In this document: positions 6,371 through 31,102 of the stretch, piece after piece
How the letters are laid out: each line of letters starts with the position of its first letter
Position numbering within the stretch: the first letter of the stretch is position 1
IMG/VR virus record: IMGVR_UViG_2778261088_000010
Coordinates: 1-32,475 of that record
Strand: one strand, 5' to 3'
DNA from: a virus
Lineage: Duplodnaviria; Heunggongvirae; Uroviricota; Caudoviricetes
Length of the DNA: 32,475 bases
The notes under the pieces: generated by a model
What the model was told of the DNA's origin: nothing
Databases searched by the model: none
The model's input: the letters and a program-made list of their open reading frames with translations, nothing else
Position numbers and translations under genes: made by a program

Positions 6371-6646
6371 TTACTCAATAAAGATCATTGGCTTACCGTT
6401 AAAGCGTTCATGCCGTGTGACCGTCCATTGTTGTCCGTCATAAACAACGCGATCCCCGCGCCGTGGGCGGTATCCCGAAGAAAACACCACCAGAGAGACC
6501 GCAGGTCCGGACAGAGCATTCAGCTCTGCCAGTGTTTCTCCCGGGATCACAGTCATATCGACATCATTAATCGAGGCTGTCTTTCCCATCTTTCTGACCG
6601 TGATCGCATCCATACGCGCTGCCAGCCGGGAAAAGGGATCAGACAT
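6371..6646 (-). CDS. Head-tail joining protein (FII-like)
   Basis: A 91-aa ORF in the FII position, between the head module and Z. The assignment rests mainly on position and size. Confidence 0.6.
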   Translation of the reverse strand: MSDPFSRLAARMDAITVRKMGKTASINDVDMTVIPGETLAELNALSGPAVSLVVFSSGYRPRRGDRVVYDGQQWTVTRHERFNGKPMIFIE

Positions 6647-6962
6647 TGAGTTTTACCGGCACTTCTTCTGCACTGGTTCCGGCATCTGCCCAGACAACCC
6701 CGACCAGCGGATCAGAGCCGCTGTTAGTCAGCTGAACTTTTCCGGACTTCAGATAAACCTTCTTACCCGTTTTCATGTCATCCGTTTTCAGCTTAGGCAG
6801 GATAAACACACCTTCGGTCATGCCGTCGCCTGTTTCACCCTGTGGAATATCGGTCAGCGCTACCGCAAAAACATCACCCACCTGCACCAGATCTCCGCTG
6901 CTGATGGCTGCACTGGCAACAATCGCCACCGTTTTTCCTTCTTCTACAAAATTCTTTGCCAT
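6639..6962 (-). CDS. Small head-associated protein (possibly DUF2190-like head decoration or cement protein)
   Basis: About 107 aa from the internal Met at 6962, which has a GGAG RBS. It lies directly downstream of the capsid gene and is Gly/Val-rich. The function is inferred from position only. Confidence 0.45.
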   Translation of the reverse strand: MAKNFVEEGKTVAIVASAAISSGDLVQVGDVFAVALTDIPQGETGDGMTEGVFILPKLKTDDMKTGKKVYLKSGKVQLTNSGSDPLVGVVWADAGTSAEEVPVKLNV

Positions 6963-7005
6963 AACTGTCTCCGCACAGCCCCGTTCAGGGGCTGATTTCA
7001 GGTAC

Positions 7006-7024
7006 AAAAAAAGCCCTTACGGGC
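7006..7024 (-). terminator. Rho-independent terminator after the capsid gene
   Basis: On the minus strand the hairpin GCCCGTAAGGGC is followed by a run of seven T, immediately downstream of the capsid stop at 7049. Confidence 0.55.
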
Positions 7025-7048
7025 CATCAGAGTTGTTGTCTGCGACGT

Positions 7049-9007
7049 TTACGCCGTACATTTCACCAGACCGCGGTGATCAACTGGCGCGACACCGGCG
7101 TCAATACGCACTTTCGTTGTCACGCCATCCACACTGAAGCCCTCCATCTGATCAATATATGGCGTATCCACACCGTTGAGATAAGCCACTTCAATCGTAT
7201 CGGAGCCTTTTGACGCAGCCAGGTAGAAGGTGGTCTGGCTGTTATCATCAAGACGAGGCTCTGCAATAACGGTCGCAAAATCTTTCACCGGGTTAATAAT
7301 ACCGGCGTTAATGTCAGCCCCCTTGACACTTGAGGAGCGAATGACCTGGTTAGCAACAGACTCCATCGCCGTCGGTACCAGTACGAACGCAGGACGAATA
7401 TTCAGATGACGCTCCCCCTCTTTCTGAACGCGCATCAACTGGCGGGCTTTATCCAGCGATGCCACGTCCATTGCAGCGCTCTCCAGTACGTTTGCATGTT
7501 TCGCTTTATCGAACAGACTTACATTATCTGTGGAGATTTTCGGGTTAGACGTCAGAATGGCATAAACCAGATCGGCAATAGTGGATTTCGCCGCACGGCC
7601 CAGTTTCATCGGGACATCGGTCAGCATATTCAGATCATCATTGATAATGGCCTGACGGGTGATACTGAACAGCTCGCCATAGGTCGCCAGTGCAATAGTG
7701 GCCTGTTTATCTCCGGTGGTGACGTATTTATATTCCGCCCCTTCACGCACCTGACGCAGAGCACTGAAGCCCCCCATACCCACACGATGGGCAATTTTAA
7801 AATCAGACAACTGACCTTTCCGCGTCCACTGTTCATAGGTTTCAGGGGCATCTTCCCAGCCCTGCAGAATGGCTTTGTTCGCAACATCCAGCAGAATATT
7901 ACCGAAGTCAGACGTACTGTGTGTGAACGCCGCACCGACCATCTGCATCGGGTTATAACTGGAAACCCCAATACCCCGTTCAGTCAGTGACATACGGGCA
8001 TATTCACGCAGGGTCATCCCGTTGTAGACATTATCACGTTCGGTTTTTTCAAATCCGGCACGCGCCATCAGCGCCTGGCGGATCCCGTCCCCCACAAAAT
8101 TACCGTTACCGGCATAAATATGAGCCGGGGTATTTTTATTGGATGGCGTGGACTCGCGCCCCATCTCGTTCAACAGCTTTTCGCGGGCCTGCTCCAGCGA
8201 ACATTCAGGATCGGCAAGACACTGAGCCTGCAGCGTCTGATAACGCCCGCCAAACATGGCAAACAGATCATTAATACCGTTTACACGCGCTTTTTGCTCT
8301 GCCAGTACCTGCGCACGGATACTGTTTTCATCCACCACGGGTGCTGCTGCCTGCACTGGCGTCCGGGAAGCTGCAGGTTCATTATCCTGTACGCGTGGAG
8401 CACTGTTGCGTGGCGGAGTAATCATGTTTCGAATGGATTCCGGCATCTTTTTAAATTCCTCTGTACGTTTTGACTGAATACATGCCATTGCCTTAACGGC
8501 TGGCGTCACCTGATCAGCAAATCCATGTGCCAGACATTCGGCACCGGACATCCAGGTCTCATCCGCCAGCATGGCAGCAATTTCATCGGTGGTTTTCCCG
8601 GTTTTCTGTGCATAAGCGGGTAACAGAACCGCCTCAACTTTATCGAGCAGGTCGGCATAGGTGCGCATGTCCTCCGCATCACCGCCCGTAAAGCCAAATG
8701 GTTTATGAATCATCATGAAGGTGTTTTCCGGCATAATGACCGGGTTTCCCACCATCGCAATGACCGACGCCATTGATGCCGCCACACCGTCGACATAAAC
8801 GGTAATGGACGCACCATGTGTTTTCAGCGCATTAAAAATGGCGATGCCTTCGAAGACATCGCCACCCGGTGAATTGATATGGAGATTAATGTGGGTGATA
8901 TCGCCCAGTGCATTCAGATCACTGATAAACTGCTTCGCTGTAACACCCCAGAAACCAATCTCGTCATAAATATAAATATCCGCGTCACTCTGGTGACCAG
9001 CCTGCAT
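7049..9007 (-). CDS. Prohead protease (ClpP/S14-like) fused to scaffold and major capsid protein
   Basis: A ClpP-like segment (IYIYDEIGFWGV...HINSPGGDVFEGIAIFNALK...VYVDGVAASMASVIAM) is followed by a long C-terminal capsid-like region in one ORF. The track ORF starts at 9268 but overlaps the portal gene, so I take the start at the Met at 9007, which follows the portal stop. Confidence 0.75.
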   Translation of the reverse strand: MQAGHQSDADIYIYDEIGFWGVTAKQFISDLNALGDITHINLHINSPGGDVFEGIAIFNALKTHGASITVYVDGVAASMASVIAMVGNPVIMPENTFMMIHKPFGFTGGDAEDMRTYADLLDKVEAVLLPAYAQKTGKTTDEIAAMLADETWMSGAECLAHGFADQVTPAVKAMACIQSKRTEEFKKMPESIRNMITPPRNSAPRVQDNEPAASRTPVQAAAPVVDENSIRAQVLAEQKARVNGINDLFAMFGGRYQTLQAQCLADPECSLEQAREKLLNEMGRESTPSNKNTPAHIYAGNGNFVGDGIRQALMARAGFEKTERDNVYNGMTLREYARMSLTERGIGVSSYNPMQMVGAAFTHSTSDFGNILLDVANKAILQGWEDAPETYEQWTRKGQLSDFKIAHRVGMGGFSALRQVREGAEYKYVTTGDKQATIALATYGELFSITRQAIINDDLNMLTDVPMKLGRAAKSTIADLVYAILTSNPKISTDNVSLFDKAKHANVLESAAMDVASLDKARQLMRVQKEGERHLNIRPAFVLVPTAMESVANQVIRSSSVKGADINAGIINPVKDFATVIAEPRLDDNSQTTFYLAASKGSDTIEVAYLNGVDTPYIDQMEGFSVDGVTTKVRIDAGVAPVDHRGLVKCTA

Positions 9008-9053: not shown

Positions 9054-10529
9054 CTACTGTCGTTTCGTTGCGGCACTGCTGCCTCCTTTATCACTGGCCG
9101 GATCGGTATCAAATACCAGGTCCAGCTTGCGGTTTTCATCAATTTCGGCCTTGCGCCGACGTTTGACATCATCCGGATTACGACCACCTGCACGTACCCA
9201 GTCTGATTCTGTCGCCGCTCCACCACGAATCTGGATTTTCCAGGCCTCAGCCTCCTTAACAGGATCAATCCACGGCATCACCGGTCCGGAATACACCGCG
9301 GTATACAGTGAAGAACGGTCAAGATCGCGGGGTAGCCTGATAACACCGGATGCCACAGCCTGTTTCAGCCAGGCACGATACATCGGGCGGGTGACGGCAC
9401 CAATAAACCAGTCCTGCAGGATCAGGTAGCCATCAGTGGATTCAACCAGCTCCTGACGCTGGGCGCTGTAAGTGCCGTTATAGTTGCGCGCTGTACTGGA
9501 AAAACTCAGACGACTGCCCGCCGCCACGGCACGCAACTGAGCATTACGAAAAGTTTCAAGGTTAGGATTTGGGCGATCCGACTTCACCATTCCGATTTCT
9601 TCGCCGGGTTTCAGATCGTCGTAAATAATGCCTGGCTGAATGGTAAGCTCGCGTTCATTCTCCTTGCTGTAATTACCATCCGTTTCATAGCTCTGTCCGT
9701 CGCCTTTGCGGATGTACATCCCCAGAGCAGCGGCGACCCTTGCTGCAGTCAGCTCAGAATCTTCATACTCTTTCAGGGCGCTGAGGCGGATCAGCACACC
9801 GGACAATAAAGACGTCCCGCGCATCTGGTGCAGACGGCGAACAAATTTAAGATGCAGCATTCGCTCTGCATCCACTTCTTTGGTTTCCATCTGCCGTCCG
9901 GATACAGGACGACTTTTATACACCAGATATTTTTCGGGACGCCCCCAGTCATCAACAAACACGCCCTGATTCAGCCTGTTGCTCTCATCACTGGTCATGG
10001 GAATAAAGTCCGGCTCGAGCGCCTCCAGCCAGAAATGAACACCGGCAGAAGGCGTCAGGCTGTTTATGCGCCCGGAAACCATCTGGGCAAACACCTCACC
10101 ATCGCGCAGCCAGGTACGCAGCATCAGACGTTCCAGCATCGGACGGGTAAACTGCCCGGTGACCTCCGGACTGACAGACCATTCACTCCATCGGGTACGT
10201 ATCTCCGCTGCCAGATCACGGGCAATGGCCCCATTGCGTAATACCGGATGTGGCTCGACAATAATCCCGTTTTTCCCCACCACCCGTTCTTCCAGCTTGT
10301 CAAATACACCAATAACCAGATCGTGGTTGTTATCAAGGTAACGGGCCTGCTCACGTAACGACACGGCCCCGTACTGGCTTAACTGGTCGGCAGTTCGGTT
10401 CTCCCGTCGGGCTTTGTGTGTCCGCGTCGTTTTTACGGCCTCATAAGCCTGGATCACCGCACGGGAACGCAGCCTTGCCGCTTTCCATCCTGGTGAAAAA
10501 ACGCCAATCACATCATCAAGAATTGCCAT
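9054..10529 (-). CDS. Portal protein
   Basis: About 491 aa, sitting between W and the protease-capsid gene. The start is taken at the ATG at 10529, which overlaps the W stop as TGATG, suggesting translational coupling. Confidence 0.8.
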   Translation of the reverse strand: MAILDDVIGVFSPGWKAARLRSRAVIQAYEAVKTTRTHKARRENRTADQLSQYGAVSLREQARYLDNNHDLVIGVFDKLEERVVGKNGIIVEPHPVLRNGAIARDLAAEIRTRWSEWSVSPEVTGQFTRPMLERLMLRTWLRDGEVFAQMVSGRINSLTPSAGVHFWLEALEPDFIPMTSDESNRLNQGVFVDDWGRPEKYLVYKSRPVSGRQMETKEVDAERMLHLKFVRRLHQMRGTSLLSGVLIRLSALKEYEDSELTAARVAAALGMYIRKGDGQSYETDGNYSKENERELTIQPGIIYDDLKPGEEIGMVKSDRPNPNLETFRNAQLRAVAAGSRLSFSSTARNYNGTYSAQRQELVESTDGYLILQDWFIGAVTRPMYRAWLKQAVASGVIRLPRDLDRSSLYTAVYSGPVMPWIDPVKEAEAWKIQIRGGAATESDWVRAGGRNPDDVKRRRKAEIDENRKLDLVFDTDPASDKGGSSAATKRQ

Positions 10530-10741
10530 CAGAACCTCGCCAGCCGGTACCCGGGATGCCCACGTCGTCGTGTAATCAGAGCCGCAAGGCGGCGCTCCCA
10601 CTCCTGCCGCCCCTGCCGGATCTCAGATAAGTTTTCCATGGTCATCTGCTGACCATTAAAAGTGACGGATTTTCCGTCCAGCACCGCCATTTCAGCTTCC
10701 GTATAACGCTGAATCATGGCTTCAATATCATTCTGATTCAT
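10529..10741 (-). CDS. W: Head-tail joining protein W-like
   Basis: About 70 aa, lying between the large terminase and portal, with an RRRG motif near the C-terminus as in gpW. Its start overlaps the terminase stop as ATGA. Confidence 0.65.
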   Translation of the reverse strand: MNQNDIEAMIQRYTEAEMAVLDGKSVTFNGQQMTMENLSEIRQGRQEWERRLAALITRRRGHPGYRLARF

Positions 10742-12837
10742 AACCATCCTCCGGAAGTCAGCCAGGGGTTAACATCGTCAGTTACTGTTTTCTTCCGTTT
10801 TTGTTTTTTAACAGGCGTGGATACCGGTTCCGGTGAGGGTGACGGTTCGGTACTGTCCGGGACACACTCCAGCCAGGCTTCCCGGCTCGCCCACTCCGGT
10901 GCATCCGGCCAGCGGATCTTTTCGTATCCATGCAGAATGACCAGAGCCTCGGCATACACCATCAGGTCAAAAGCTTCGTTGGCACCGCGACCCGGCTTAC
11001 TCCATTTCCCGTCACTGCTCCGCTCTTCATACGTCAGTTCGTCGTAAAACCAGCTCCCCAGCCAGTCAGGGAAATGCACATAGCCGGGACCTGGCGAGTC
11101 ACGCCATAACGCGTTATTCACCCGGTCTTTCAGGGCATCCGTCTGAAGAAGCCAGAGCGGCACATCACCTGCGGCCTGCGCCCGTCGGCCCGTTCGTCCG
11201 GTGTTATCAGGGAATGTACGGGTGATCAGTTTTGCGCGCCGGATGCTGTCGCCCTTAAACAGGTAAATACGTTTACCAAGGCCATCACGACGGCAACGAC
11301 GCCAGAATTTATAGGCATTATCAGTGACCCCGTCTTCACCGCCGGAGTCCACCGCCATTGCCATCAGTCGCATTTGTTGAGAAGGGTCGGAGGCCAGCGG
11401 CCAGCTTTTATGAAAAACATCCGTCAGCAGGACATCCCAGTCTTCCGGATAGCTGGCTGGATCAATTCGCTGGCTCTCCCCGTCGCTGTCACCGCGCAAT
11501 GACTGCGTGATGTTGTAACGATCAATAATCCAGCGTTCGCCACGGCTGCCATAGCCCGTTACCTGAACCACAAAACGGCGATGACGTCCCGCCTGCACAT
11601 CCACTGTCGCCACAAGGAAATTAACGCCATCCGGCACACTGCGGGAAGGAACTGGCTCTGCCCGCTGCTCAAGCAATTCACTTTTTCGTTGCTCCATGCT
11701 GGCACGAGGAAGATAAGGCAATCCCCAGTCGGTGTTGATAACCGCCCTGAGTGTTTCTTCGCTTCCTGTCGCTTCATACTCCTGTTCTGCAGTCAGTAAT
11801 TTGTAAACCAGTTGCGCCCAGGTCTGATACGCAGCAGCTGGCCCTTCCATCCAGAAACTGGCGATACGGGAGCGGCGCGGTTCACCGGAAACGTTGCCGT
11901 TACGATCAATGACCTGCCCTTCACGCAACCAGACTCCTGCACTATTGAGCTCACGCTTTTTCTCCGCAGTGATAATGCCGCTGCAGTGCGGGCAAAGTAG
12001 ATACGCCGCCTCACTGGCTTTAAAGGGATCCGGTTCATTACGGTAGCCGGTCATGGCATCCATGGCTGGCTGAAAATATTCACCGCAGTGCGGACATGGC
12101 CAGTACCAGCGGCGGCGGTCACCACGATTGTAAAGGGAAAGAATACCAGTCGTCGGTGGCGCTTCATGAGGCGACTTACGTCGCCATTTGCTGTCGCAGA
12201 TGTCACGTCCCGGCGAGCTCTCCACCAGAGTCATCCCGGCGGACATAAATGTGGTGGTACGTTTTGAGGCCAGGGAGAAACCATCACCCTCGCTGTCGAT
12301 ATTCTCCGGAAAACGGTCGTAATCGGTTAAGGCGACAAACCGGTAATCCGACGACGACATAATGTTGACCGAGGGCCAACCAATTTTAAGGAACGAGCCA
12401 TCCCTGAACGTCTTATCATGGACATTATTGTCGTTACGACGTGGACTCATTCTTTTCTTTACCGCCGCACTGCTTCTGAACGTTCTGTCGAGGCGCTTTT
12501 TAGAATGCTCGCGGGCCTTATCTTCGGTCATCTGCACAACGAGCATGTCCGAAGGATCGCAAACGATGGTATAGACAATCCATCCATCGATCAGACCAAT
12601 GGTCTTCCCTGTTCGCGCAGGACCAACAAAAATCACCGCATCGTATTCACGCGATGCCAGGCAGTTCATGGGCTCAATGATGTAGGGTGTCAGTTCAGGA
12701 TCCCATGGCACCGAGTTACCAGCCCCCTTGGGAACACGCATGAATTTTTTAACAGCCTCCGAAATCGGCATGCGACGTGGTGGGGAAAATCCTGCCGATA
12801 TGTCCCTTCCCAAATTTCGGGCTGATGAAAAACCCAT
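10738..12837 (-). CDS. A: Terminase large subunit (lambda A-like)
   Basis: A 699-aa ORF directly downstream of the small terminase subunit, with a P-loop-like VGPARTGKT motif. Size and position match lambda gpA. Confidence 0.85.
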   Translation of the reverse strand: MGFSSARNLGRDISAGFSPPRRMPISEAVKKFMRVPKGAGNSVPWDPELTPYIIEPMNCLASREYDAVIFVGPARTGKTIGLIDGWIVYTIVCDPSDMLVVQMTEDKAREHSKKRLDRTFRSSAAVKKRMSPRRNDNNVHDKTFRDGSFLKIGWPSVNIMSSSDYRFVALTDYDRFPENIDSEGDGFSLASKRTTTFMSAGMTLVESSPGRDICDSKWRRKSPHEAPPTTGILSLYNRGDRRRWYWPCPHCGEYFQPAMDAMTGYRNEPDPFKASEAAYLLCPHCSGIITAEKKRELNSAGVWLREGQVIDRNGNVSGEPRRSRIASFWMEGPAAAYQTWAQLVYKLLTAEQEYEATGSEETLRAVINTDWGLPYLPRASMEQRKSELLEQRAEPVPSRSVPDGVNFLVATVDVQAGRHRRFVVQVTGYGSRGERWIIDRYNITQSLRGDSDGESQRIDPASYPEDWDVLLTDVFHKSWPLASDPSQQMRLMAMAVDSGGEDGVTDNAYKFWRRCRRDGLGKRIYLFKGDSIRRAKLITRTFPDNTGRTGRRAQAAGDVPLWLLQTDALKDRVNNALWRDSPGPGYVHFPDWLGSWFYDELTYEERSSDGKWSKPGRGANEAFDLMVYAEALVILHGYEKIRWPDAPEWASREAWLECVPDSTEPSPSPEPVSTPVKKQKRKKTVTDDVNPWLTSGGWL

Positions 12838-16184: not shown

Positions 16185-16646
16185 TTATTTTAAGCACTGA
16201 GTCCTGATGTACTCCTGCAGGTAGTTAACCTGCGCGGTTATCTTGTCGATTCCACTTCGGAGACGGTAATAATTGAATTCAGCATCTGCTGTAAGTCCTG
16301 GGCTTTCTCCATCGCCCATGCTGCTGGCTCCGGTCGTTGATTTTGCACAGGTGGCGGCGACTTGCAGGCGCTTACGCCCAGAAGAAACATCAGCACGGAG
16401 ACTTTCGATAGTCGCGTTAGCATCAGCAAGCTCCTTTGTGTATCTGGCGTCAAGTTCTGCTACGTCACGTTGACGCTTCTGCATATCAGAGATAGTCGCC
16501 ATAGCCGAATCTAATGCCATAGCATTCTCATCACGCTGCTTTTTGTATTCGATGGCTTTGCTGTAGTAATAATTTGCTGAACAGATAAAAGAACCAATGA
16601 CAGTAACGAAGAATGCAGCGATAACCAGCTTATAGCTCAACTTCAT
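16185..16646 (-). CDS. Rz: Rz i-spanin
   Basis: The 153-aa product has an N-terminal transmembrane segment and a conserved core (QRDENA...MQKRQRDVAELDARYTKELADA) very similar to lambda Rz. Confidence 0.85.
   Translation of the reverse strand: MKLSYKLVIAAFFVTVIGSFICSANYYYSKAIEYKKQRDENAMALDSAMATISDMQKRQRDVAELDARYTKELADANATIESLRADVSSGRKRLQVAATCAKSTTGASSMGDGESPGLTADAEFNYYRLRSGIDKITAQVNYLQEYIRTQCLK
16238..16423 (-). CDS. Rz1: Rz1 o-spanin, embedded in the +1 frame of Rz
   Basis: An ORF nested inside Rz in another frame, with a lipoprotein signal and lipobox (MLTRLSKVSVLMFLLGVSAC) followed by a Pro-rich stretch, as for lambda Rz1. Confidence 0.6.
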   Translation of the reverse strand: MLTRLSKVSVLMFLLGVSACKSPPPVQNQRPEPAAWAMEKAQDLQQMLNSIITVSEVESTR

Positions 16647-17106
16647 TTATCACCCCGCCAGCCTCTTTGAATCGGGCAATCAGGTCACCGATTTTATGTT
16701 CATACTGACCGTAACCAGCGCCCGGCAGTGAAGCCCAGATATTGCTGCAACGATCGATAGCCTGACGAATATCGCCGCGATCAATCATCGGTAAAGCGCC
16801 ACGCTCTTTAATCTGCTGCAATGCCACAGCATCCTGGCTTTTTGGAGAGAAGTCTTTCAGCCTAAGCTGCTTGCGGTAAGCATCCCACCAGCGTGAAAGA
16901 AGTTGATAACGGCCTGCAGCTGTTGATTTGAGTTTGGGGTTTAGCGTGACAAGTTTGCGAGGGTGATCGGAGTAATCAGCGAAGAGTTCACCACCAACAA
17001 TAACGTCATAACCGTGGTTACGTGTCGGTTGTCGTCCGTTATCCGTTCCTTCTGACCAAGCCACCATATCGAGGAAAGCTTTACGCTGGGAATTTAGTAC
17101 CTGCAT
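16630..17106 (-). CDS. R: Endolysin (lambda R-type lytic transglycosylase)
   Basis: The 158-aa product (NSQRKAFLDMVAWSEGTDNGRQPTRNHGYDVIVGGELF...) is near-identical in pattern to lambda R. Confidence 0.9.
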   Translation of the reverse strand: MQVLNSQRKAFLDMVAWSEGTDNGRQPTRNHGYDVIVGGELFADYSDHPRKLVTLNPKLKSTAAGRYQLLSRWWDAYRKQLRLKDFSPKSQDAVALQQIKERGALPMIDRGDIRQAIDRCSNIWASLPGAGYGQYEHKIGDLIARFKEAGGVINEVEL

Positions 17107-17109
17107 AAA

Positions 17110-17436
17110 TTACTCCTTAGAGCCACCAAATTTGTTACCGATTACTCGCATTGCAGCCCCACGAATAGCATCGACACCGATCAGCCCCACCCCACCACCA
17201 ATGGCAACAGATAGTGATTTAGGCCATCCGACATACTCAAGAGCGGATGCAAAAGTCAGCGTCAGAGCGCCACAGAGTAGAATTTCGAGTGTTTTTCGCT
17301 TCCAGCCGCCACCACCGCCAAAATAGGCAATACGTAAACCAGCCATAACAATCGACATAATCACTGCGCCCAGCGGTGTGTCTCCACGCCACCAGCTCTG
17401 GACCAACTCCAGCCAGGTATTTGGGTTATGAGGCAT
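17110..17436 (-). CDS. S: Holin (lambda S-like)
   Basis: A 108-aa product with hydrophobic transmembrane segments, lying immediately upstream of R. Confidence 0.75.
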   Translation of the reverse strand: MPHNPNTWLELVQSWWRGDTPLGAVIMSIVMAGLRIAYFGGGGGWKRKTLEILLCGALTLTFASALEYVGWPKSLSVAIGGGVGLIGVDAIRGAAMRVIGNKFGGSKE

Positions 17437-17587
17437 TTGTAGTTATCTCTCACCTCGCCAATACAGGAGGTGCAAATTGAGGGAACATCATGTACCGCAA
17501 ATCAGAAGCGGAAACGTAAAAGAGGCCGAGCCAATGGATAACTGCGGTATAGACCAGGCTCAACAAATAGCCGGGGCCAGAAACGAC

Positions 17588-17609
17588 AAACCCGCTCGAC
17601 GGCGGGTTT
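17588..17609 (-). terminator. Hairpin about 150 bp upstream of S; candidate tR'-like terminator
   Basis: A perfect 8-bp inverted repeat (AAACCCGC, 6-nt loop, GCGGGTTT) with a modest U-rich tail on the minus strand. The tR' assignment is a positional inference. Confidence 0.3.
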
Positions 17610-17836
17610 AAGCTGTGTGGCGAAGTGACCACTCTTAACACGATACAATAGTTTTTGCGTACGCGTTAGCATTTTTGATGGAAGTTAATGGTTGTTAATC
17701 TTATACTCAGTAAACAAAATTTATGCCGCCTTGAGCATGATGCGACATTAGGCACATGTTTGGATCTTCCTCGAAGATTCGTGCGGTAGCTATGCTCAAA
17801 ATCCAATCAGCTCATAAAACATACTATGGGTTTTAA

Positions 17837-18586
17837 ATGCTCATTCCAACATCTCTATCAAAACAACCAGTAATCGAAGCTGCTTTCGAAATGCGTTTTT
17901 CTAAAGAAACACAAATATCGGAAATAGTTCCAGGGTTTCTTTTTCACGCTCTAGGTTGTACAAAACCAGTAATTAGTTTACCACCCAGTCAAATACCTAA
18001 AAATGTTCGTGAGGGAGATGAACAATTACATTACGCAGTTGTCAGTCGCCTCGAAATCGAAGGGTACTATATTGGACTAAGTGACCATGGTGTTGTTGTA
18101 TCCACCAGCACCAAATATCAAGGGTGGAGTCATTTTAGAGAAAAAATCATTCATGTATTAAATGAGCTTAACAAATTAAATTTAAATGACAACATCATCC
18201 GCTACTCATTAAAGTATGTAGATTTTTTCCCAAAAGAAGACGATTCTAATTTATTTGATAAGCTAAACGTCAGCTTAAATATGGCTGGCGAGTCTATGTC
18301 TAATTATCCGATCAATATCAGAATCGATAAAAATGAAGGCGCATTTCTAAATATAATTCAAATATTATCTCATGCTTTAGTCATGTCAGATAATGGAGAA
18401 TTTAATAAAAAAGGACTAATCCTAGACATAGACAGCATTAGGCAAATCACTAATACTGATGAAATAGATAAGTTTAAAAACGAACCAAAAAAAATTCTTG
18501 ATGATCTTCACTCCTGTAATAAATTAGCTTTCTTTAGTTGCCTTAAAGAGTCAACAATTCAAGAACTAGAACCATCCTACAAATAG
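17837..18586 (+). CDS. Hypothetical protein, first gene of the AT-rich three-gene cassette
   Basis: A 249-aa ORF on the strand opposite to all flanking phage genes, with strongly AT-biased codon usage. No catalytic motif was recognised by eye. Confidence 0.6.
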   Translation: MLIPTSLSKQPVIEAAFEMRFSKETQISEIVPGFLFHALGCTKPVISLPPSQIPKNVREGDEQLHYAVVSRLEIEGYYIGLSDHGVVVSTSTKYQGWSHFREKIIHVLNELNKLNLNDNIIRYSLKYVDFFPKEDDSNLFDKLNVSLNMAGESMSNYPINIRIDKNEGAFLNIIQILSHALVMSDNGEFNKKGLILDIDSIRQITNTDEIDKFKNEPKKILDDLHSCNKLAFFSCLKESTIQELEPSYK

Positions 18587-18601
18587 AAATGGTGGTATGA
18601 T

Positions 18602-18946
18602 ATGTATCCGTCTCATCATGTTTATCGAGCTCAACTTCAAGTATTAACTTTGGTTTTATATGGTCTGCATATAACTGCATTAACAGACATTGCCCAAAAT
18701 CAACAGCATGGTCCTCAACAAAGTTTAATCGTCAAAAATCACGCTTTGGAGTATAAGTCTTCAACTACCGATTCAGTTCATTCCATCACACAAACATATA
18801 AAGCAGGGAGCACAATCTCAGTTGATCAAAGACTTGCAGTCTCGATGACAAACTTTTATGAAAAATTATCGACAAACCAGGTGTCTTTAGGCAGTGAAAT
18901 AAATAAAGTCGTTCATGCTTCACTGTGGGATTTATACTTGGATTAA
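18602..18946 (+). CDS. Hypothetical protein, second gene of the cassette
   Basis: A 114-aa ORF starting 16 nt after the first gene's stop, with a GGTGG RBS-like motif. It has a hydrophobic N-terminal stretch (LQVLTLVLYGLHITAL). Confidence 0.5.
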   Translation: MYPSHHVYRAQLQVLTLVLYGLHITALTDIAQNQQHGPQQSLIVKNHALEYKSSTTDSVHSITQTYKAGSTISVDQRLAVSMTNFYEKLSTNQVSLGSEINKVVHASLWDLYLD

Positions 18947-19564
18947 GTGATGAGTAATAACATTTTTGATATCGAGAAATTCAAAGATCAAATTCCATAT
19001 TATTTAACAGCTCATCAAAAAGAAGGGCTAATAAATGCACTTAGAGATTTCCCTGAAAACACTAACTACTACCTTAGCAATTATCATGATGATCTGAAAA
19101 ATGCTGCACTTCAGGGAGATATATTTAAGGAGCTTACAGTATATTCAATTAAAGGGACTAAAAAAACACGAGGCATTATATTAAGCAACAGTTGCGATAT
19201 AGATACAAGTAATAATCGTGATGTGCCAATGCGTGCAGTCTTTGCTCCGTTAGTAAGTTTATCTAAGTTCGAAGCTATTCTTCTCTCCAACGGAGTTTCT
19301 AAGACTTCAATAGATAGCAAAATTGATGCTATAAGGAAGCAGTTAATTACTAATATTTTTTATCTTCCTGAATCAGACAACTTAGAAGAATGCATCGTTT
19401 TTCTTGATGATGTATACCAATTACCAACGGAAGAATTACAAAAACTCTTGAATGATAAATGCAAAGCCATAACTTTAAGTCAAGTTGGTTTCTACATTTT
19501 ACTATTCAAAATATCTATTCACTTTTGTAGATTCCATGAAAACATACAACGATTCGATCATTAA
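18947..19564 (+). CDS. Hypothetical protein, third gene of the cassette
   Basis: A 205-aa ORF whose start (GTG at 18947 or ATG at 18950) directly abuts the stop of the second gene. It has a hydrophobic C-terminal segment (VGFYILLFKISIHF). Confidence 0.55.
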   Translation: MMSNNIFDIEKFKDQIPYYLTAHQKEGLINALRDFPENTNYYLSNYHDDLKNAALQGDIFKELTVYSIKGTKKTRGIILSNSCDIDTSNNRDVPMRAVFAPLVSLSKFEAILLSNGVSKTSIDSKIDAIRKQLITNIFYLPESDNLEECIVFLDDVYQLPTEELQKLLNDKCKAITLSQVGFYILLFKISIHFCRFHENIQRFDH

Positions 19565-19565
19565 G

Positions 19566-19588
19566 GCGGTACTACCGCCTTTTATTAT
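19566..19588 (+). terminator. Rho-independent terminator ending the cassette
   Basis: The perfect hairpin GGCGGTACTACCGCC is followed by TTTTATTATTTT on the plus strand, 2 nt after the third gene's stop. Confidence 0.65.
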
Positions 19589-19589
19589 T

Positions 19590-19934
19590 TTACACAAGTA
19601 TACTTACAACCCCCTCTATAAAACCGATTGCGGTTTGCAACTCCTTCCTAATAGTGCCATCAGAGCACCTTCTCCTTTTGGCAATAGTGCGTAATGAGAT
19701 ACCAATAACAAAGTGGGCTATGATGAGCTCATATTCCTCTGGTTTATACTTTCTCAACCGAGCCACACAACTGTCTATCATAATGCCTTCGTCATCATCA
19801 CACTGAATCCGTGACTTTTTGCCATGAGGTAAAAGCCCCTTGAAGCCTGCTGCTACCGGCTGCCAGTCCACACCACTGTTGTCTGCTGCAGCCCATGCTC
19901 CCCAGCGGTCCAATACTTCATACATATCACGCAT
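19590..19934 (-). CDS. Q: Late-gene antiterminator Q (82/DLP12 QuuD-like)
   Basis: The product (MRDMYEVLDRWGAWAAADNSGVDWQPVAAGFKGLL...QCDDD...CSDG) resembles the DLP12/82-type Q as recalled, including a Cys cluster. It sits upstream of the lysis cassette on the late strand. Confidence 0.65.
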   Translation of the reverse strand: MRDMYEVLDRWGAWAAADNSGVDWQPVAAGFKGLLPHGKKSRIQCDDDEGIMIDSCVARLRKYKPEEYELIIAHFVIGISLRTIAKRRRCSDGTIRKELQTAIGFIEGVVSILV

Positions 19935-19952
19935 CAACTTACCCCACAAAAA

Positions 19953-20948
19953 TCAGGCCAGCACGCCAATTGCCAGCGCACGATCGATAAAACGAAATAT
20001 CAGCTCCAGCTGGGAGCCATACTTCTCTTCAAATGCCACGGTATCCGCATGCAGCTCGTCGTGATGCTTTCTGCACAAAGGCAACACAAAGAGATCATGC
20101 GCTTTTGTAGCCATTCCACCCTGACCGTGGCCTATCAGGTGGTGGGGATCATCAGCAGGCTTTCCACAACATGCACACGGCTGCGTCTTAACCCAGCGCG
20201 TGTACTTTTCATTAACCCAGCGGCGACGTTTTGGGCGTAACATAAAAGACTCCGGCGACTCCGGATCCACTTCCAGCGCCAGCACTTTTTTCGCTTTATC
20301 CTGGATGATGCTGGTGGCAGGAACCGAAGGCACAAGGTCACTTTCCCGGGTAACAGACGGCACAACAGGCTTCGGTAATCTCAGTGCCTTACGGGCTGCA
20401 CTTTCCGGTAAGGCATCAGCCAGGTCATTACGAACCAGCCACCAGCACAGTTCCGGCATTGTCACAACGTGACTGTCATCAAAACCGAGATCCCGACGCA
20501 CGACAGACAACACCCAGCGGGCACAGTTATCCGTTGCCATTGACTCCAGCCGTTCCGTGAACTGATCACGCAGCTGGTTATCGCAGTGCCAGCACAGACG
20601 GATTGCGCCCGGCGCGTGTCGCATAGTGGTCATGTTCTCGCTGTGCCAGTCGGAATGAGGCCACTGACAGCCCTTTTCACGAAGTAACCAGCTTTCAAGG
20701 CATTCCACGCCACCAGCACGACGGATCACTGCCTCATTGCGAAACACGGCCCGAACGACAGGATCATCCGCCAGCGGTTGTGATGCCGCCGGAACGGCAC
20801 CACTGGCGAAAGATGAATAACGTTCCGGCTCAGGCTCCAGCAGGACACGCCCCTGCATAAACAGGGGCATCAGCTCTGAACCGGGCCTGAACAATACGAT
20901 CCCCATACGCGGGGCAATTTCAGGGGTCAGTAGTGCTCTCACGGTCAC
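19953..20948 (-). CDS. DUF968-family protein (YdfU-like, nin region)
   Basis: A 331-aa product with a C-terminal Cys/His cluster (CACCGKPADDPHHLIGHG...CRKHHDELH), as seen in YdfU-like prophage proteins (from memory). Confidence 0.55.
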   Translation of the reverse strand: MTVRALLTPEIAPRMGIVLFRPGSELMPLFMQGRVLLEPEPERYSSFASGAVPAASQPLADDPVVRAVFRNEAVIRRAGGVECLESWLLREKGCQWPHSDWHSENMTTMRHAPGAIRLCWHCDNQLRDQFTERLESMATDNCARWVLSVVRRDLGFDDSHVVTMPELCWWLVRNDLADALPESAARKALRLPKPVVPSVTRESDLVPSVPATSIIQDKAKKVLALEVDPESPESFMLRPKRRRWVNEKYTRWVKTQPCACCGKPADDPHHLIGHGQGGMATKAHDLFVLPLCRKHHDELHADTVAFEEKYGSQLELIFRFIDRALAIGVLA

Positions 20949-20949
20949 C

Positions 20950-21759
20950 TCAATGAACGGTATCGAGCAGCTTTAACAGTTCAGGGAATCGGGATTCGAA
21001 GAAATGCGGTTGCGTCTCGCGCGGATTTGCAGGACTGGTGATGTTCTTGCCGAACATGCAGCCTTTCGCCGTCAGCGACCAGAATTTTTTGATGTTGTTA
21101 ATCGCGGTACGGCTGTATCGTTCGCGTTGTTCAACGATCCCCAGCTTCGCCATCTGGTGATATGCCTGATTAGCCGTCAGGCAGATACCATACTGTTTCA
21201 GCAGTGCACTCAGCGACAGCGTAGGGCGACTTGAGCCATCAGGCGCGTCAGCAGGAGCATCAATGGCATAGCGCGGTGCCAGATTCGGTAAGCCAACAGC
21301 CTCCTGGAGTTTCTGACAGGCACCAAGCACTGAAGAGTTAGACAGGTTTAACTCCCTGCGCATAAAGTCCAGCAGAATCACACCAGCCTGCATCTTGTCA
21401 GCAGCCTGCCCGGATAATTTTTCCGGTGCGCTGGTTACCATATCGAAAGTACGGATCACCTTCAGATGGAATGACGGGCTGATCCACATTGCATAGGCAT
21501 ACACCAGTTCCTTGCAGACATACGTTCCCCGTTCATTTCCCCCATGAATCACACTCACCGGGTCAACACCCAAATTCTGGGTGTTGGTCAATTCATGAAC
21601 AAGCTCAACAGTTTGTTGGCTGGAAAGAAACTTTCCTGGCTCCTTGGTTCTGGCATTTGCACCAGATGCTACTGCTGCGCGATGCAGATCGTTCAGGCTG
21701 TAACGCCCATAAGCATCACGACGAACTTCAATACCATCAATGACCATCAGATTATTCAT
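20950..21759 (-). CDS. KilA-N domain protein
   Basis: The N-terminus (MNNLMVIDGIEVRRDAYGRYSLNDLHRA...PGKFLSS) fits the KilA-N pattern. The start is taken at the internal Met at 21759 to avoid overlap with rusA. Confidence 0.55.
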   Translation of the reverse strand: MNNLMVIDGIEVRRDAYGRYSLNDLHRAAVASGANARTKEPGKFLSSQQTVELVHELTNTQNLGVDPVSVIHGGNERGTYVCKELVYAYAMWISPSFHLKVIRTFDMVTSAPEKLSGQAADKMQAGVILLDFMRRELNLSNSSVLGACQKLQEAVGLPNLAPRYAIDAPADAPDGSSRPTLSLSALLKQYGICLTANQAYHQMAKLGIVEQRERYSRTAINNIKKFWSLTAKGCMFGKNITSPANPRETQPHFFESRFPELLKLLDTVH

Positions 21760-21778
21760 ACTTCGTTTCTCCTCTTGA

Positions 21779-22168
21779 TCAGGCGGCTGCACCCGCCGTT
21801 TTCTCGTACTTACTGATAGTGATCTCGACCTTCCCTTCCGGGATAACCGGTCCCCACTCCACCAGCATTCTTTTCACCTGACTGTCGTCTTCCCACACCC
21901 CCGCGTGGGTCAGGGCGTCAAACAGCGCCTTGTTATAGTTGTCCAGATCGCGGATCCGGTTATCCGGTGGAAACAACACGATCTCCACTGCAGCAGGTGC
22001 CGACGTTGGTTTCGGCAGACGACGTAACTGCTCAACTATTGCTGCGCACGCCGCGCTCTGGAATTTTCGCCCCGCCGCGCTTATCAGGCTCTTACCTGCA
22101 AACGCCCCTTTGTTGGGGTGTCGCCAGTACGTGTTCACGCTGGGCGGAAAAGGCAGGATCAGCTTCAT
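21779..22168 (-). CDS. rusA: Holliday junction resolvase RusA
   Basis: A 129-aa product with LPFPPSVN, RDLDNYNKALFDALT and WEDDSQV motifs matching RusA. Confidence 0.8.
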   Translation of the reverse strand: MKLILPFPPSVNTYWRHPNKGAFAGKSLISAAGRKFQSAACAAIVEQLRRLPKPTSAPAAVEIVLFPPDNRIRDLDNYNKALFDALTHAGVWEDDSQVKRMLVEWGPVIPEGKVEITISKYEKTAGAAA

Positions 22169-22818
22169 GCCACTATCTCCCTGACCAGCCGTTCTGCCTG
22201 CTGGCGAACCTGCGCCAGAAACGCCTCACCACATGCCTCAAGTTCATCGCGCCCGATGTAGCTGATTGCCGGTCCCTTCCAGGTCTTATCGAAAACAGCA
22301 ATAGCACCAGCGAAGAAAGCACCTGTCGGCACCTGCTTCTCGTCTTTCGGGATAAACCAGGCAGGCAGTTCAAAACCAATACGCCCGCGAATAAAAGCAA
22401 TATGGTCTGCATCTTCCGGCCACCACACTTCGCTGGTGGCAGCTTTGATCAGGAAAACATAGCGCCCGCCTTTATCACGCATAGCACTGGCATGTTTCAT
22501 GATGTAACGCATGCCGGTGATGTATTGCCCCTCATGCTGACTGGCGCGGCTGTATGGGGGATTACCAAAGGCAGCACCTTTAAGCTCCGCAAGACGTTCT
22601 GACCAGTCATGCGCCAGCGCGTTGTCTTCCGCCGTGTAATACGCAGCACATTTGGTGTTATCACCGTCAGTGAACAGATCCAGAACAAACGGGCCAAACA
22701 GGGTGTTAATTCCCCAGAAAATGTTGTCCGGCGTGCGCCACTGATCGCCCACTTCCTTCAGTTCATGGGCTGGTTTGTTCCGCAGTTCCACCAGCGCCTG
22801 GCAATATTTATTACTCAT
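22165..22818 (-). CDS. Phage DNA N6-adenine methyltransferase (Dam-like)
   Basis: The catalytic NPPY motif is present (GNPPYS). Size and nin-region position fit phage N6A methyltransferases. The start at 22818 overlaps the upstream stop as TAATG. Confidence 0.75.
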   Translation of the reverse strand: MSNKYCQALVELRNKPAHELKEVGDQWRTPDNIFWGINTLFGPFVLDLFTDGDNTKCAAYYTAEDNALAHDWSERLAELKGAAFGNPPYSRASQHEGQYITGMRYIMKHASAMRDKGGRYVFLIKAATSEVWWPEDADHIAFIRGRIGFELPAWFIPKDEKQVPTGAFFAGAIAVFDKTWKGPAISYIGRDELEACGEAFLAQVRQQAERLVREIVA

Positions 22819-23312
22819 TAAGCCCCCACGTAATTCCCTGACAGATACCACTCATCACCCGGTACAGCGCGCTTGCTGCTTTTCCGTAAACACCGCTCAC
22901 GACGCGCAAGAAAATTGTTTCGCTCTGGCTGGGAGTGGCTTTCACGGAATGCCGCCATCCACACCGTTGCAGCACGACGGTATAAGCCCCTCGACTCCAG
23001 TTCTTCCGCCTGGCGGGTCAGGCACAAAATCACCCGGGGATCGTTAGTGCCGACATAGAAATTGCGCACAGGTCTGGTTTCACGAACTGGTTGCGGTTCC
23101 GCCTCCTGCGCTCTCTCAGTCAGGCGCGGGAAATGTCTGCGTGTATCCCCTTCACAACGGTGAGCCACACGACCACTCTGACGTAACTTGCTTGCTGACT
23201 GCAGAACGCGCTGCCGTGAGTAACCTGCAAAAGCATCCGCAATGTCTCCGGAAGTACACCCCGGATGGGCTTCAATGTATTTCTGAACTTCATTCAAAAG
23301 ACTCATGATCAC
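22818..23312 (-). CDS. Hypothetical nin-region protein (C-terminus possibly PerC/ANR-like)
   Basis: A 164-aa ORF that is translationally coupled to its neighbours. The C-terminal RGLYRRAATVWMAAF...ERNNFLARRERC pattern is reminiscent of PerC/ANR-type regulators; this is a weak call from memory. Confidence 0.4.
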   Translation of the reverse strand: MIMSLLNEVQKYIEAHPGCTSGDIADAFAGYSRQRVLQSASKLRQSGRVAHRCEGDTRRHFPRLTERAQEAEPQPVRETRPVRNFYVGTNDPRVILCLTRQAEELESRGLYRRAATVWMAAFRESHSQPERNNFLARRERCLRKSSKRAVPGDEWYLSGNYVGA

Positions 23313-24127
23313 CCCCTGAATCCTGCCGGGATCTGGCTGTAGTCCACGTTGTCGTAACTGGCTTTGAAGTACGGGTCCTCGCGTCTGGCTGCAGATACCG
23401 CAGGAACTTCCCAGGATTCTTCGAAATGACGATCCGGACCAAAGAACGTGACAGCCTGTTTCACAAATTGTGTGCCGCTGTTACCCATCGCAGATACCCA
23501 GCCCGCGTAGCGTTTCACACCTTCCAGCATGGTTTCGGGGTTTACCCCCTCATTCAAACGGGCTTTCCAGGCTTTGAAGGCTGCAGATTTTGAATTGCCA
23601 CCAGCACGTTTGGGATATACCAGCCATGCCTGCTCAAACTCCGGAGAGTATTCCGGTCGGTTTGAACGAACTCGCACGGACTCATCAACTGATGCACCAA
23701 CAGCTATTGGTTCATTGACTGGTTCTTTGACTGGTTCAAAAGAGTGACTGGTTCTGGGTGAATCTCCTGCACTACCCCCTGGTGCAACTCCTGCACTACC
23801 TGGTGAATTTGCTGCACCAGATAGTGAATTATTTGCACTACCCCCTAGTGAATCTCCTGCACCATCAAGATGAAGGAGATAGATATTACTTGAGTTACCT
23901 TTTTCACCTTTCCGGGTGACTTTTTTTACCAGCCCGGACTCACAAAGGGCCGCAATATGATTCATCACAGAACGTTTGCTAATCTCGCACTGGTCAGCAA
24001 TATGCTGGTAGCTGGGCCAGCACTCACCCTGATCGCTGGCATTATCAGCCAGCTTGATCAGAACCAGTTTTCGCAATGGATTACCCACTCGAATTTTCAT
24101 CGCTTTAACCATCAGCTCCATACTCAT
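23309..24127 (-). CDS. Replication initiator (lambda O-analogue) with an N-terminal HTH and internal repeats
   Basis: The N-terminus has a winged-HTH-like segment (LVLIKLADNASDQGECWPSYQHIADQCEISKRSVMNHI). The central region is encoded by tandem DNA repeats, and the gene sits in the O position. Confidence 0.6.
   Translation of the reverse strand: MSMELMVKAMKIRVGNPLRKLVLIKLADNASDQGECWPSYQHIADQCEISKRSVMNHIAALCESGLVKKVTRKGEKGNSSNIYLLHLDGAGDSLGGSANNSLSGAANSPGSAGVAPGGSAGDSPRTSHSFEPVKEPVNEPIAVGASVDESVRVRSNRPEYSPEFEQAWLVYPKRAGGNSKSAAFKAWKARLNEGVNPETMLEGVKRYAGWVSAMGNSGTQFVKQAVTFFGPDRHFEESWEVPAVSAARREDPYFKASYDNVDYSQIPAGFRG
23711..23869. repeat. Iteron-like direct repeats inside the replication gene (candidate ori)
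   Basis: Three copies of a roughly 13-bp unit (GACTGGTTC...) are followed by five copies of a 21-24-bp unit (GGTGAATCTCCTGCACTACCCCCT and variants). Confidence 0.5.
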
Positions 24128-24360: not shown

Positions 24361-25189
24361 GACGATGCCCTCCGCTGATATTCAGGAGACGGTGAATATG
24401 AAGATTAGCCTTATCCGCCAAACGAATACGTTCAGCCTGCAAGTTAAGAAGGGTTTCTACCAGAAGTTGATGCGCCTGCGGATCTGAAAGAGTTACCTTG
24501 CGCAGAGCACGTAGTGCTGTTGTTACATAACTGAGTTTATGTAAGTCTTCATCATTCAGACGAGTGAGGGCTGGGACAGTAGCCATGATGGCAGCCTCCT
24601 TGATCGGTGAAATACTTCCACCACCGGAAACGCCAATTTCGCTGGTGGTGAACTGAACGGGGTTGGCGTAACCGGTGATCAAGGAAACCGGCGCATCTTT
24701 CGATGCCCCCGCCCAGCCCACCATAACTTTGATGTGAGCAAATGCGGACGATAAAAAAGACGCTGGCGCGTCATATATCGCCTTGATCAATTCCAGGACG
24801 CCAATCCCGGCACCCGCTTTATAAGGTGCCTGAACAGTGTAACGTCCCGGAATGGCAGAATCAATGTGCTGGTGGTCCTTCACACTCAATAAAATCACGC
24901 CTGAATTTCCACAAAGGACTAAAGCACTCATGCGGGTAGTCTTTGCGAAGATAGATAACGCGCTGCGTTTCTGGCTCCCAACGAATAACATGGACATAAA
25001 GCCCTCTTCCGTCACGAAACCAGCGGTTAAGTTCCTGCACAACGCGCCCCCCACAGTCAGGTAAAGTTCTCTGTGGTTACTTACAGCCAGGTGATTTGGT
25101 AATCTGCATTCATGCCGTAACAACAGGTGTTCAGCGACGCTGACCACCTGCTGTTGCGACAAACGGTTATTTGCCGTTAAACTGTTCAT
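24353..25189 (-). CDS. Hypothetical early-region protein
   Basis: A 278-aa ORF translationally coupled to its neighbours. No motif was recognised. Confidence 0.5.
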   Translation of the reverse strand: MNSLTANNRLSQQQVVSVAEHLLLRHECRLPNHLAVSNHRELYLTVGGALCRNLTAGFVTEEGFMSMLFVGSQKRSALSIFAKTTRMSALVLCGNSGVILLSVKDHQHIDSAIPGRYTVQAPYKAGAGIGVLELIKAIYDAPASFLSSAFAHIKVMVGWAGASKDAPVSLITGYANPVQFTTSEIGVSGGGSISPIKEAAIMATVPALTRLNDEDLHKLSYVTTALRALRKVTLSDPQAHQLLVETLLNLQAERIRLADKANLHIHRLLNISGGHRHA

Positions 25190-29806: not shown

Positions 29807-31102
29807 ATGAAGCAAAATAGTACAATTTCGTCTGTTTTTAAGATATCACGAGATCTTCCCGAAAACTATGTCATTAGAAAAGATATAGATGATAAATTCA
29901 TTGAGGCACTGACTCAAGAAACACATGTCGTAATTTATGGCAGCTCAAAACAAGGTAAAACATCCTTAAGAAAAAAGAATCTTCTTCCAGAAGATTATAT
30001 CGATATTACATGTTCAAACACTTGGAAACTGGAAGATATTCACGTTGCAATTTTAAAAAAAATTGGCTATCAAGTTTCAACTTCACAATCCAAAACCTTA
30101 AAAGGCTCAGCTAAGGTAAAAATAGGAATAAATATTCCTTTCATTCATAAAACATCACTTGATTTAACTGGGGATGCTGCAAAAACGATTAATAAAAAAA
30201 ATATTGAATTAGATCCTGGGGATGTCAATGACATAATTACTTCTTTAGAAGAGGTCAATTTCAATAAAATTATTGTTATCGAAGACTTTCACTATCTTCC
30301 AGAACAAACGCAAATTGATTTCTCTGTGGCATTAAAAGCCTTTCATGAATCATCTAAACTTTGTTTTATTATTGTTGGAGTATGGCTGGAAGAGGATAAA
30401 CTAACAACATTTAATGGTGACTTAGCAGGAAGAGTTGTTTCCATTAATGCTGACCGCTGGGAGAAAGAAGACGTATATAAACTATTTGAGAATAGCGAGA
30501 AGTTACTTAACATTAAATTTGATGAAAAATTTAAATCAGATATTATTGAAAAATGTAATGGAAGTATTTTTTTAGTTCAACAGTTATGTTTTAAAGCATG
30601 TGAATTAGAACAGATAAATAATAGCCAAGGTGAACTTAAGATTGTAGGTAAAAATTTTTTAGTTGAAGATGAAATAAAAAAACTAATCAATGAACAATAC
30701 TCAAGATATTTCAAATTTTTAACCGATTTTAGCTGTGGATTTGATCAGACCTCACTTGAATTATACAAATGGATTTTGTATGTTCTGATTACTGTTGAAC
30801 AACGTTATCTTGAAATAGGTGTGCCTGAGGCTGCTATTAGGCGGTTAATTCAAGAAAAACACCCTAAAAAAACAGAAGTTTCACAAAAAAAATTAAGACA
30901 GGCGCTACGAAAGTCTGTTGATCTCCAAGTAAAAATATCTATTAAACCTATTGTTTTTGAGTTTGACTCCAGTTCATCCAGAATTAAGATAGTTGATAGA
31001 CCATTTATATTATGGCGATCGTATCAAAATCAAGATGATCTATACGGATACGCAGATCTATCAGATGATTTAAAAACCAATATTATTACTACTGGATATT
31101 AA
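29807..31102 (+). CDS. P-loop NTPase (AAA-like ATPase) of unknown function in an AT-rich island
   Basis: Walker A (VVIYGSSKQGKTSL) and Walker B (KIIVIEDFHYL) motifs are present. The gene is very AT-rich, with AT-rich flanks, and is inserted between xis and int. Confidence 0.7.
   Translation: MKQNSTISSVFKISRDLPENYVIRKDIDDKFIEALTQETHVVIYGSSKQGKTSLRKKNLLPEDYIDITCSNTWKLEDIHVAILKKIGYQVSTSQSKTLKGSAKVKIGINIPFIHKTSLDLTGDAAKTINKKNIELDPGDVNDIITSLEEVNFNKIIVIEDFHYLPEQTQIDFSVALKAFHESSKLCFIIVGVWLEEDKLTTFNGDLAGRVVSINADRWEKEDVYKLFENSEKLLNIKFDEKFKSDIIEKCNGSIFLVQQLCFKACELEQINNSQGELKIVGKNFLVEDEIKKLINEQYSRYFKFLTDFSCGFDQTSLELYKWILYVLITVEQRYLEIGVPEAAIRRLIQEKHPKKTEVSQKKLRQALRKSVDLQVKISIKPIVFEFDSSSSRIKIVDRPFILWRSYQNQDDLYGYADLSDDLKTNIITTGY

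Follow-up and report, generated by a model that had tools for sequence, protein, structure and literature searches.

A three-gene cassette with a predicted MazF-fold protein in a variable cargo slot of a lambdoid prophage: a candidate tripartite toxin-antitoxin-type defence module

Toxin-antitoxin (TA) systems with three components, namely omega-epsilon-zeta, PaaR-PaaA-ParE and the toxin-antitoxin-chaperone systems, consist of an extra component, a small neutraliser and a toxin that are co-transcribed in that order; PaaR2-PaaA2-ParE2 is borne by a prophage. Among the toxins of the two-component systems, Escherichia coli MazF employs R29 and T52 as its catalytic residues. Here we describe a three-gene cassette, encoding the proteins P1, P2 and P3, in a 32,475-nt stretch of DNA from a virus of the class Caudoviricetes (IMG/VR record IMGVR_UViG_2778261088_000010, positions 1 to 32,475; hereafter, the window, to which all coordinates refer unless another sequence is named). 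In our judgement, the chances are about even that this triad is a lysogen-expressed, toxin-antitoxin-type abortive-infection or defence/exclusion module in which P3 is the effector. We infer the defence or abortive-infection function from location and architecture only.

The three genes are located on the plus strand: that of P1 at 17837-18586 (249 amino acids, aa), that of P2 at 18602-18946 (114 aa) and that of P3 at 18947-19564 (205 aa from a GTG start, or 204 aa from the start chosen in RefSeq, the ATG at 18950). They lie between the genes of a Q-family antiterminator and a holin, both on the minus strand, and run antisense to the late operon. The coordinates and strands of the three open reading frames (ORFs) amid minus-strand neighbors are those given in an initial annotation made from the sequence of the window. 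That annotation put the spacings at 16 nt and 0 nt; the second is correct for P2 and P3 (3 nt with the ATG start), and the first, between P1 and P2, is 15 nt. The low GC content that it reported by eye is borne out by calculation, with 0.333 for 17837-19564 vs 0.508 across the remainder of the window. Its hairpin-plus-T-tract terminator is also real: an intrinsic plus-strand terminator at 19563-19591 comprises a hairpin (19563-19581; 8-bp stem with 5 G-C pairs) and a U-rich tract, UUAUUAUUUU, with a dG of -11.7 kcal/mol and z = -4.2 relative to shuffled sequences, and adjoins the stop codon of Q.

As a module, the triad stands by itself and moves horizontally, and no fourth gene is conserved with it. 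About 500 homologues of P3 occur in a clustered protein collection, and a set of 1.84 billion proteins yields 998 representative clusters, of which the best 150 are 140-261 aa in length (most near 200 aa) and carry no added domain. A further homologue search with a P1 alignment yielded only five more distant proteins. A scan of one genome per species identified 71 loci, spanning Alpha-, Beta- and Gammaproteobacteria, Desulfobacterota, Bacteroidota, Chloroflexi, Riflebacteria and metagenome-assembled genomes (MAGs) of Bacilli/Tenericutes, and the P1-P2-P3 order and the sizes of the proteins are kept in essentially every locus with enough sequence. The sources of the triad include Allochromatium, Ca. 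Symbiobacter, Magnetomoraceae, Aggregatibacter, Pseudomonas, Rhodobacterales, Syntrophales, Rikenellaceae and Ignavibacteriaceae. The most distant relatives of P3, from MAGs of Bacilli and Chloroflexi, have two ORFs ahead of them, one of 241-245 aa and one of 98-112 aa, and distant P1 homologues likewise reside in triads. More than 1,200 blocks of an assembly collection list a homologue from Klebsiella pneumoniae, and the triad is found in 2 of 72,556 plasmid records.

The three genes are translationally coupled: of 42 loci in other genomes, 37 have the stop codon of P1 and the start of P2 in an 8-nt overlap. P2 and P3 of the E. coli version share a reading frame, separated by a single TAA (18944-18952); in other species, a gap of mostly 6-12 nt divides these two genes and their frames differ, and the shared frame is probably incidental. 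P2 is the fastest-evolving protein of the triad and P3 the most conserved: identical residues per position relative to the window proteins amount to 0.42 for P3, 0.32 for P1 and 0.17 for P2 (0.65, 0.64 and 0.32, respectively, in Klebsiella). Decay is asymmetric as well, P3 being broken next to an intact P1 in 5 loci, mostly from MAGs, and the reverse pattern being found in none. The gene order, the relative evolutionary rates and the decay asymmetry are no more than indirect signs of a possible type II TA system, in which a protein that is toxic by itself would be neutralised through direct binding of a labile protein antitoxin.

P3 is predicted by structural modeling to adopt the MazF/Kid/CcdB fold (an SH3-like barrel). 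Three helical elements are added to this core: an extension at the N-terminus, a hairpin inserted at about residues 104-135 and one helix at the C-terminus. At the level of the predicted fold, the MazF-like core overturns the statement in the initial annotation that no toxin motif is present. Among 141 diverse family members that are 31-50% identical to the window protein, Q55, G56, D57, S79, N80, C82, D83, N88, Q131, K187, H191, R194 and R201 are at least 95% conserved. K187, H191, R194 and R201 share one face of the C-terminal helix, and conserved polar residues also lie on the loop that follows strand 2. This invariant polar set looks enzyme-like.

P1 belongs to the family TIGR04255 (96.2 bits vs a cut-off of 30, E 2.6e-27, residues 7-244 of 249), and RefSeq names the identical protein accordingly. 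Its structure, predicted from a 27-sequence alignment with a pLDDT of 92, is that of a duplicated TBP-like alpha/beta saddle, a fold common to transcription factors and ligand binders; a fold search of BFVD with P1 gave only weak TBP-like matches. P2 combines a short, weakly hydrophobic N-terminal segment (median 19-aa Kyte-Doolittle maximum, 1.53) with a hypervariable middle and a conserved acidic C-terminal part of about 35 aa, as judged from 48 aligned homologues. The C-terminal part follows the pattern F..FY..L...QE.LG.EFE.VL.ENLWDLY, and the median net charge over the final 40 aa is -6.5. In Salmonella GCA_038081095.1 (8898-9116 of locus L084), P2 is called as a 72-aa protein, vs 119 aa, with the N-terminal part lost and both P1 and P3 intact; if this short version is real, the conserved acidic C-terminal part would suffice for the role of P2.

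The initial annotation assigned none of the three proteins to a known family. This does not hold for P1, given TIGR04255, and all three match PHROG families (P2, phrog_5728). It does hold in the sense that these PHROGs are of unknown function and that the proteins match no family in Pfam (for P3, none at E<=1) or in PADLOC. In NCBIfam, only P1 has a match, P2 being devoid of a domain there, and PDB sequence searches with the single proteins and with profiles returned nothing relevant.

The cassette occupies a slot that is bordered on the right by the Q gene (19590-19949, minus strand; annotated in RefSeq on identical DNA of an SfII-like prophage, L001), the counterparts of which in Klebsiella and Citrobacter match PF06530 (Phage_antitermQ), and on the left by a conserved leader upstream of the holin. 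The cassette is present in 92 of 5,426 complete E. coli genomes, at >=99% identity in all cases, or 92 of the 2,225 that bear the flanking leader. Five alternative cargos, each likewise antisense, occupy the identical position in related prophages: a complete Kiwa system (KwaA, 1.9e-83; KwaB, 2.3e-150), PDC-M53A/B in phage SfII, PDC-S20 (a KAP/PifA-like NTPase), the porin NmpC/OmpC, and an antisense gene pair at 4792-7184 of locus L090 (E. coli CDE6306, NZ_CP191552.1) that encodes a 391-aa homologue of the nucleoid-associated protein NA37 and a 404-aa protein. Three of these five are known or candidate defence systems. PADLOC recognizes neither gene of the L090 pair, and the 404-aa protein also lacks a Pfam match; given the hotspot, the pair is a further candidate for an unrecognized defence system. 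In phage SfII, the cargo next to Q, SfII_49 (194 aa), is unrelated to P3.

This variability agrees with the proposal in the initial annotation that the locus is a variable cargo site. Most related phages lack the cassette, whose presence in nearly all of them was named in the initial annotation as grounds for refutation, and none of its proteins is a known structural or lysis protein. The cassette has the properties of a prophage moron or hotspot cargo, namely its own terminator, deviant composition, variable presence and alternative cargo. The earlier view of it as a horizontally acquired, self-contained operon is supported.

Elsewhere, the triad appears in diverse company. Lambdoid prophages of Klebsiella pneumoniae, Citrobacter and Salmonella harbor it, at about 65% identity, in the same Q-holin slot. 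In the Pseudomonas phage Dobby, a relative of phage P2, it adjoins the portal gene, at the old/tin hotspot of phage P2, a cos-proximal site that Rousset et al. demonstrated to harbor anti-phage systems (PMC9122126). In the Pseudomonas phage VW-6S, the triad follows cI immediately and shares its strand, a position like that of rexAB. Chromosomal copies adjoin MazEF, ParE, BrnT, PIN, RES-Xre, reverse transcriptases, Wadjet and integrases, as well as housekeeping genes.

In the scenario that we favor, P3 would act as the effector that arrests growth, most likely as a metal-independent endoribonuclease; its active site would differ from that of MazF, and we propose for it D57, N80, C82, D83, K187, H191, R194 and R201. 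In the lysogen, the acidic C-terminal helix of P2 would keep P3 inactive, in the manner of the acidic tail of MazE in the RNA groove of MazF, and P1 would be the third subunit, serving as an infection sensor, an adaptor or a regulator of the complex. Infection by another phage might then free P3, either through the loss of a labile P2 or through the binding of a phage product by P1, and the freed P3 would stop growth before the invader finishes its cycle, which would amount to abortive infection or exclusion of competitors. A more specific version, to which we assign somewhat less than an even chance, is that the triad represents a new, phylogenetically broad tripartite anti-phage family, with a MazF-fold enzyme that has a new Cys/His/Arg/Lys active site and is held in check by an acidic protein and a TBP-like sensor.

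Several observations weigh against this scenario. P3 does not match the Pfam family PF02452, a P3 profile finds no MazF among the PDB sequences, and the comparison of P3 by hhalign with a small alignment of MazF sequences is not significant (E 0.06, probability 0.9%). We therefore do not claim that P3 belongs to the MazF family and claim the predicted fold only. In the register of this non-significant alignment, K/R74-G75 of P3 is opposite R29-P30 of MazF, and I or V stands two positions after P100, where MazF has T52; the catalytic Thr is not kept, and the residue aligned with the catalytic Arg is K or R and not invariant. The MazF/CcdB fold is also found in proteins that are not nucleases, such as CcdB, which poisons gyrase. 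PADLOC-DB 2.0.0, a database of the defence annotator whose use the initial annotation had suggested, contains no family that matches P1, P2 or P3 at E<=1, and the same method works at this locus, as it matches sister-prophage cargo of the same slot. P2 lacks a DNA-binding domain recognizable by Pfam or NCBIfam, unlike typical type II antitoxins, and its hydrophobic N-terminal segment could be a signal or a membrane anchor, a misfit for a cytoplasmic antitoxin. The role given to P1 is a guess, and the decay asymmetry comes down to the five loci mentioned above. Finally, the immediate neighbors of the triad outside phage genomes are heterogeneous; the 150 flanking ORFs that were scanned include integrases, reverse transcriptases and many housekeeping genes, and this census, the PADLOC summary of which is swamped by redundant reverse transcriptase models, does not establish enrichment in defence islands statistically.

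The same features could be accounted for in other ways. The tight coupling of a MazF-fold protein with a small, fast-evolving acidic partner, the frequent presence of other TA loci next to the triad and the breakage of P3 beside an intact P1 are all compatible with a tripartite TA addiction module that, through post-segregational killing, stabilizes its carrier prophage or island and does not act directly against phages. We consider this explanation unlikely, given that addiction modules classically reside on plasmids, where the triad is almost never found, and that the phage slots in which it is found otherwise hold defence systems; because many TA systems also act in defence, it overlaps with the TA-type defence module that we favor. 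It is also conceivable, although quite improbable in our estimate, that the triad is a lysogenic conversion module with no toxin, the P3 barrel being a binding scaffold and the complex altering the envelope, the stress response or regulation via the TBP-like P1. The absence of the MazF catalytic residues from P3 would fit such a function, as would the occurrence of the P1 fold in transcription factors and ligand binders, the weakly hydrophobic N-terminus of P2 and the acceptance by the slot of a porin and of the nucleoid-associated protein pair. Conservation of Q, D, N, C, D, N, Q, K, H, R and R at >=95% in P3 sequences that are 31-50% identical is more typical of an enzyme, and the carriage of the module by very different lifestyles and phyla is unlike a host-specific physiological role.

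The antisense orientation of the cassette relative to the late operon and its position next to Q, together with its linkage to the Q-DUF968 module, which holds across genera at about 66% nucleotide identity, bring up yet another explanation: a counter-defence or phage-competition module for lytic growth, or a regulator of late transcription that acts via antisense transcription. Such a role agrees poorly with the many copies outside phages, as the triad often resides in chromosomes away from any phage genes. In addition, other phages place it elsewhere, by the portal gene or downstream of cI, and sister phages are functional with a slot that holds unrelated cargo. We regard this explanation as very improbable.

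A literature search returned no paper on TIGR04255, on the protein accessions WP_000907077, WP_125282403 and WP_000069422 or on the PHROG numbers, and no publication on the triad, with the limitation that Brenes & Laub 2025, the study likeliest to have tested E. coli prophage cargo, was outside its coverage. In the supplements of the DefensePredictor paper, TIGR04255 appears only in a SHAP table. If the TA-type defence module is real, it would provide the first function for TIGR04255 and for three PHROGs of unknown function and would constitute a defence family that is invisible to PADLOC-DB 2.0.0 and Pfam. Clinically relevant hosts commonly carry the module. P3 would then be an elaborated MazF-fold protein with different conserved residues, of interest for toxin evolution and as a possible new RNA-cleaving activity, and the Q-to-late-leader slot of SfII- and lambda-like prophages would be a defence hotspot. 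Independently of the triad, this slot is worth mining for more systems, for example, the L090 pair.

The left border of the slot is the conserved leader upstream of the holin, defined by sequence comparison as 17437-17677 on the minus strand. The initial annotation had taken 17437-19592 as the cassette interval; the cassette is indeed within it, and the first 241 bases are this leader rather than cargo, so that the cassette proper starts after about 17677. The leader is present in 2,225 of 5,426 complete E. coli genomes and in the Shigella phages SfII (91% identity) and SfIV, and partly in 434 and other lambda-like phages, to which positions 17588-17663 are 88% identical. It contains a terminator-like hairpin on the minus strand (17610-17587, dG -14 kcal/mol).

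Alignment of the upstream regions from E. coli, Klebsiella and Citrobacter delineates an upstream control region of the cassette (17611-17836, plus strand) and, within it, a conserved 5' leader block (about 17765-17810, plus strand). The elements CTTATACT, TGCGTACGCGT and CGTGCGGTAGC are invariant in this alignment, compared with only about 65% identity of the cassette proteins. A palindrome, GCGTACGC, together with the CTTATACT block (17653-17707), is likewise invariant across the three genera. A consensus scan detected no strong plus-strand promoter upstream of the cassette; the alignment points to a candidate with a -35 element ATGGAA at 17679-17684 (TTGGAA in Klebsiella) and a -10 element TATACT at 17702-17707, separated by 17 nt. 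Part of the upstream conservation may belong to a minus-strand late promoter. The late promoter pR' was not placeable by consensus. Only a few bases separate the cassette terminator from Q, both here and in SfII, which leaves no room for the late promoter there and would put it on the holin side. The order of the slot is Q, cargo, late leader, holin, and the arrangement supposed in the initial annotation, with pR' and tR' between Q and the cargo as in Stx phages, does not apply, as the cassette sits between Q and the conserved late leader.

The surroundings of the slot comprise, on the minus strand, the genes of the endolysin (16630-17106) and the holin (17110-17436) on one side and, beyond Q, a DUF968 gene (19953-20948) on the other. 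The window is a mosaic: 16528-23384, from the lysis genes through the cassette, Q and DUF968 to KilA-N, is 97-98% identical to the SfII-like prophage L001, which has Mu-like tail genes, and the terminase and portal region (9190-12780) resembles lambda-like Klebsiella prophages (73%). The cargo moves together with the Q/lysis module.

At the integrase end, a second AT-rich cargo gene (29807-31102, plus strand; 30% GC) resides between an excisionase-like ORF and the integrase gene (31252-32475, minus strand). It encodes a 431-aa protein with the Walker A motif GSSKQGKTS that matches the PADLOC candidate PDC-S59 (2.7e-73) and, weakly, the Pfam family AAA_22, and is probably a second defence gene of this prophage. 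In the early region, two minus-strand segments side by side match RNA families above the Rfam gathering score, namely the C4 antisense RNA (24641-24728, 82 bits) and the Hfq-binding RNA isrK (24753-24829, 64 bits). From this pair, it seems that the lambdoid prophage carries an antisense immunity element of the P1/P7 type.

Among the known systems, the cargo of other hotspots, that is, Kiwa, PDC-M53 and PDC-S20, old/tin, and rexAB downstream of lambda cI, is similar to the triad in position, antisense orientation, AT-richness and patchiness, but the proteins are unrelated. Rst_3HP, a set of three hypothetical proteins from the hotspot of phage P2, resembles the triad in consisting of three genes without recognized domains in a temperate-phage hotspot. 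The Rst_3HP proteins on pFR109 are 333, 359 and 227 aa in length (Rousset et al. 2022, Table S2A, PMC9122126), compared with 249, 114 and 204 aa in the triad, and BLASTP of all nine pairs gave a best E of 0.03 over 28 aa, so we reject the identity of the two. In type III systems, the antitoxin is a repeated RNA, and the similarity of P3 to the toxins ToxN, CptN and AbiQ is lower than that to MazF; the cassette and its immediate surroundings contain no tandem-repeat RNA and no Rfam match, and we therefore reject a type III arrangement.

With MazEF, Kid-Kis and CcdAB, the triad has in common the predicted fold of P3, with no match at the sequence level. Compared to MazF, P3 is twice as large, owing to the N-terminal extension, the hairpin insert and the C-terminal helix with the invariant K187, H191, R194 and R201, and lacks the catalytic Thr. 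P2 differs from MazEF-type antitoxins in having no AbrB, ribbon-helix-helix (RHH) or other DNA-binding domain, and the triad as a whole differs from MazEF-type systems in the obligatory third gene, that of P1. The third components of the three-component TA systems show no sequence or fold relationship to P1, a 249-aa protein with a predicted TBP-like saddle that is neither an RHH or helix-turn-helix regulator nor a SecB-like chaperone. By analogy, the triad would be most like MazEF or Kid-Kis supplemented with a third component, as in omega-epsilon-zeta or PaaR-PaaA-ParE.

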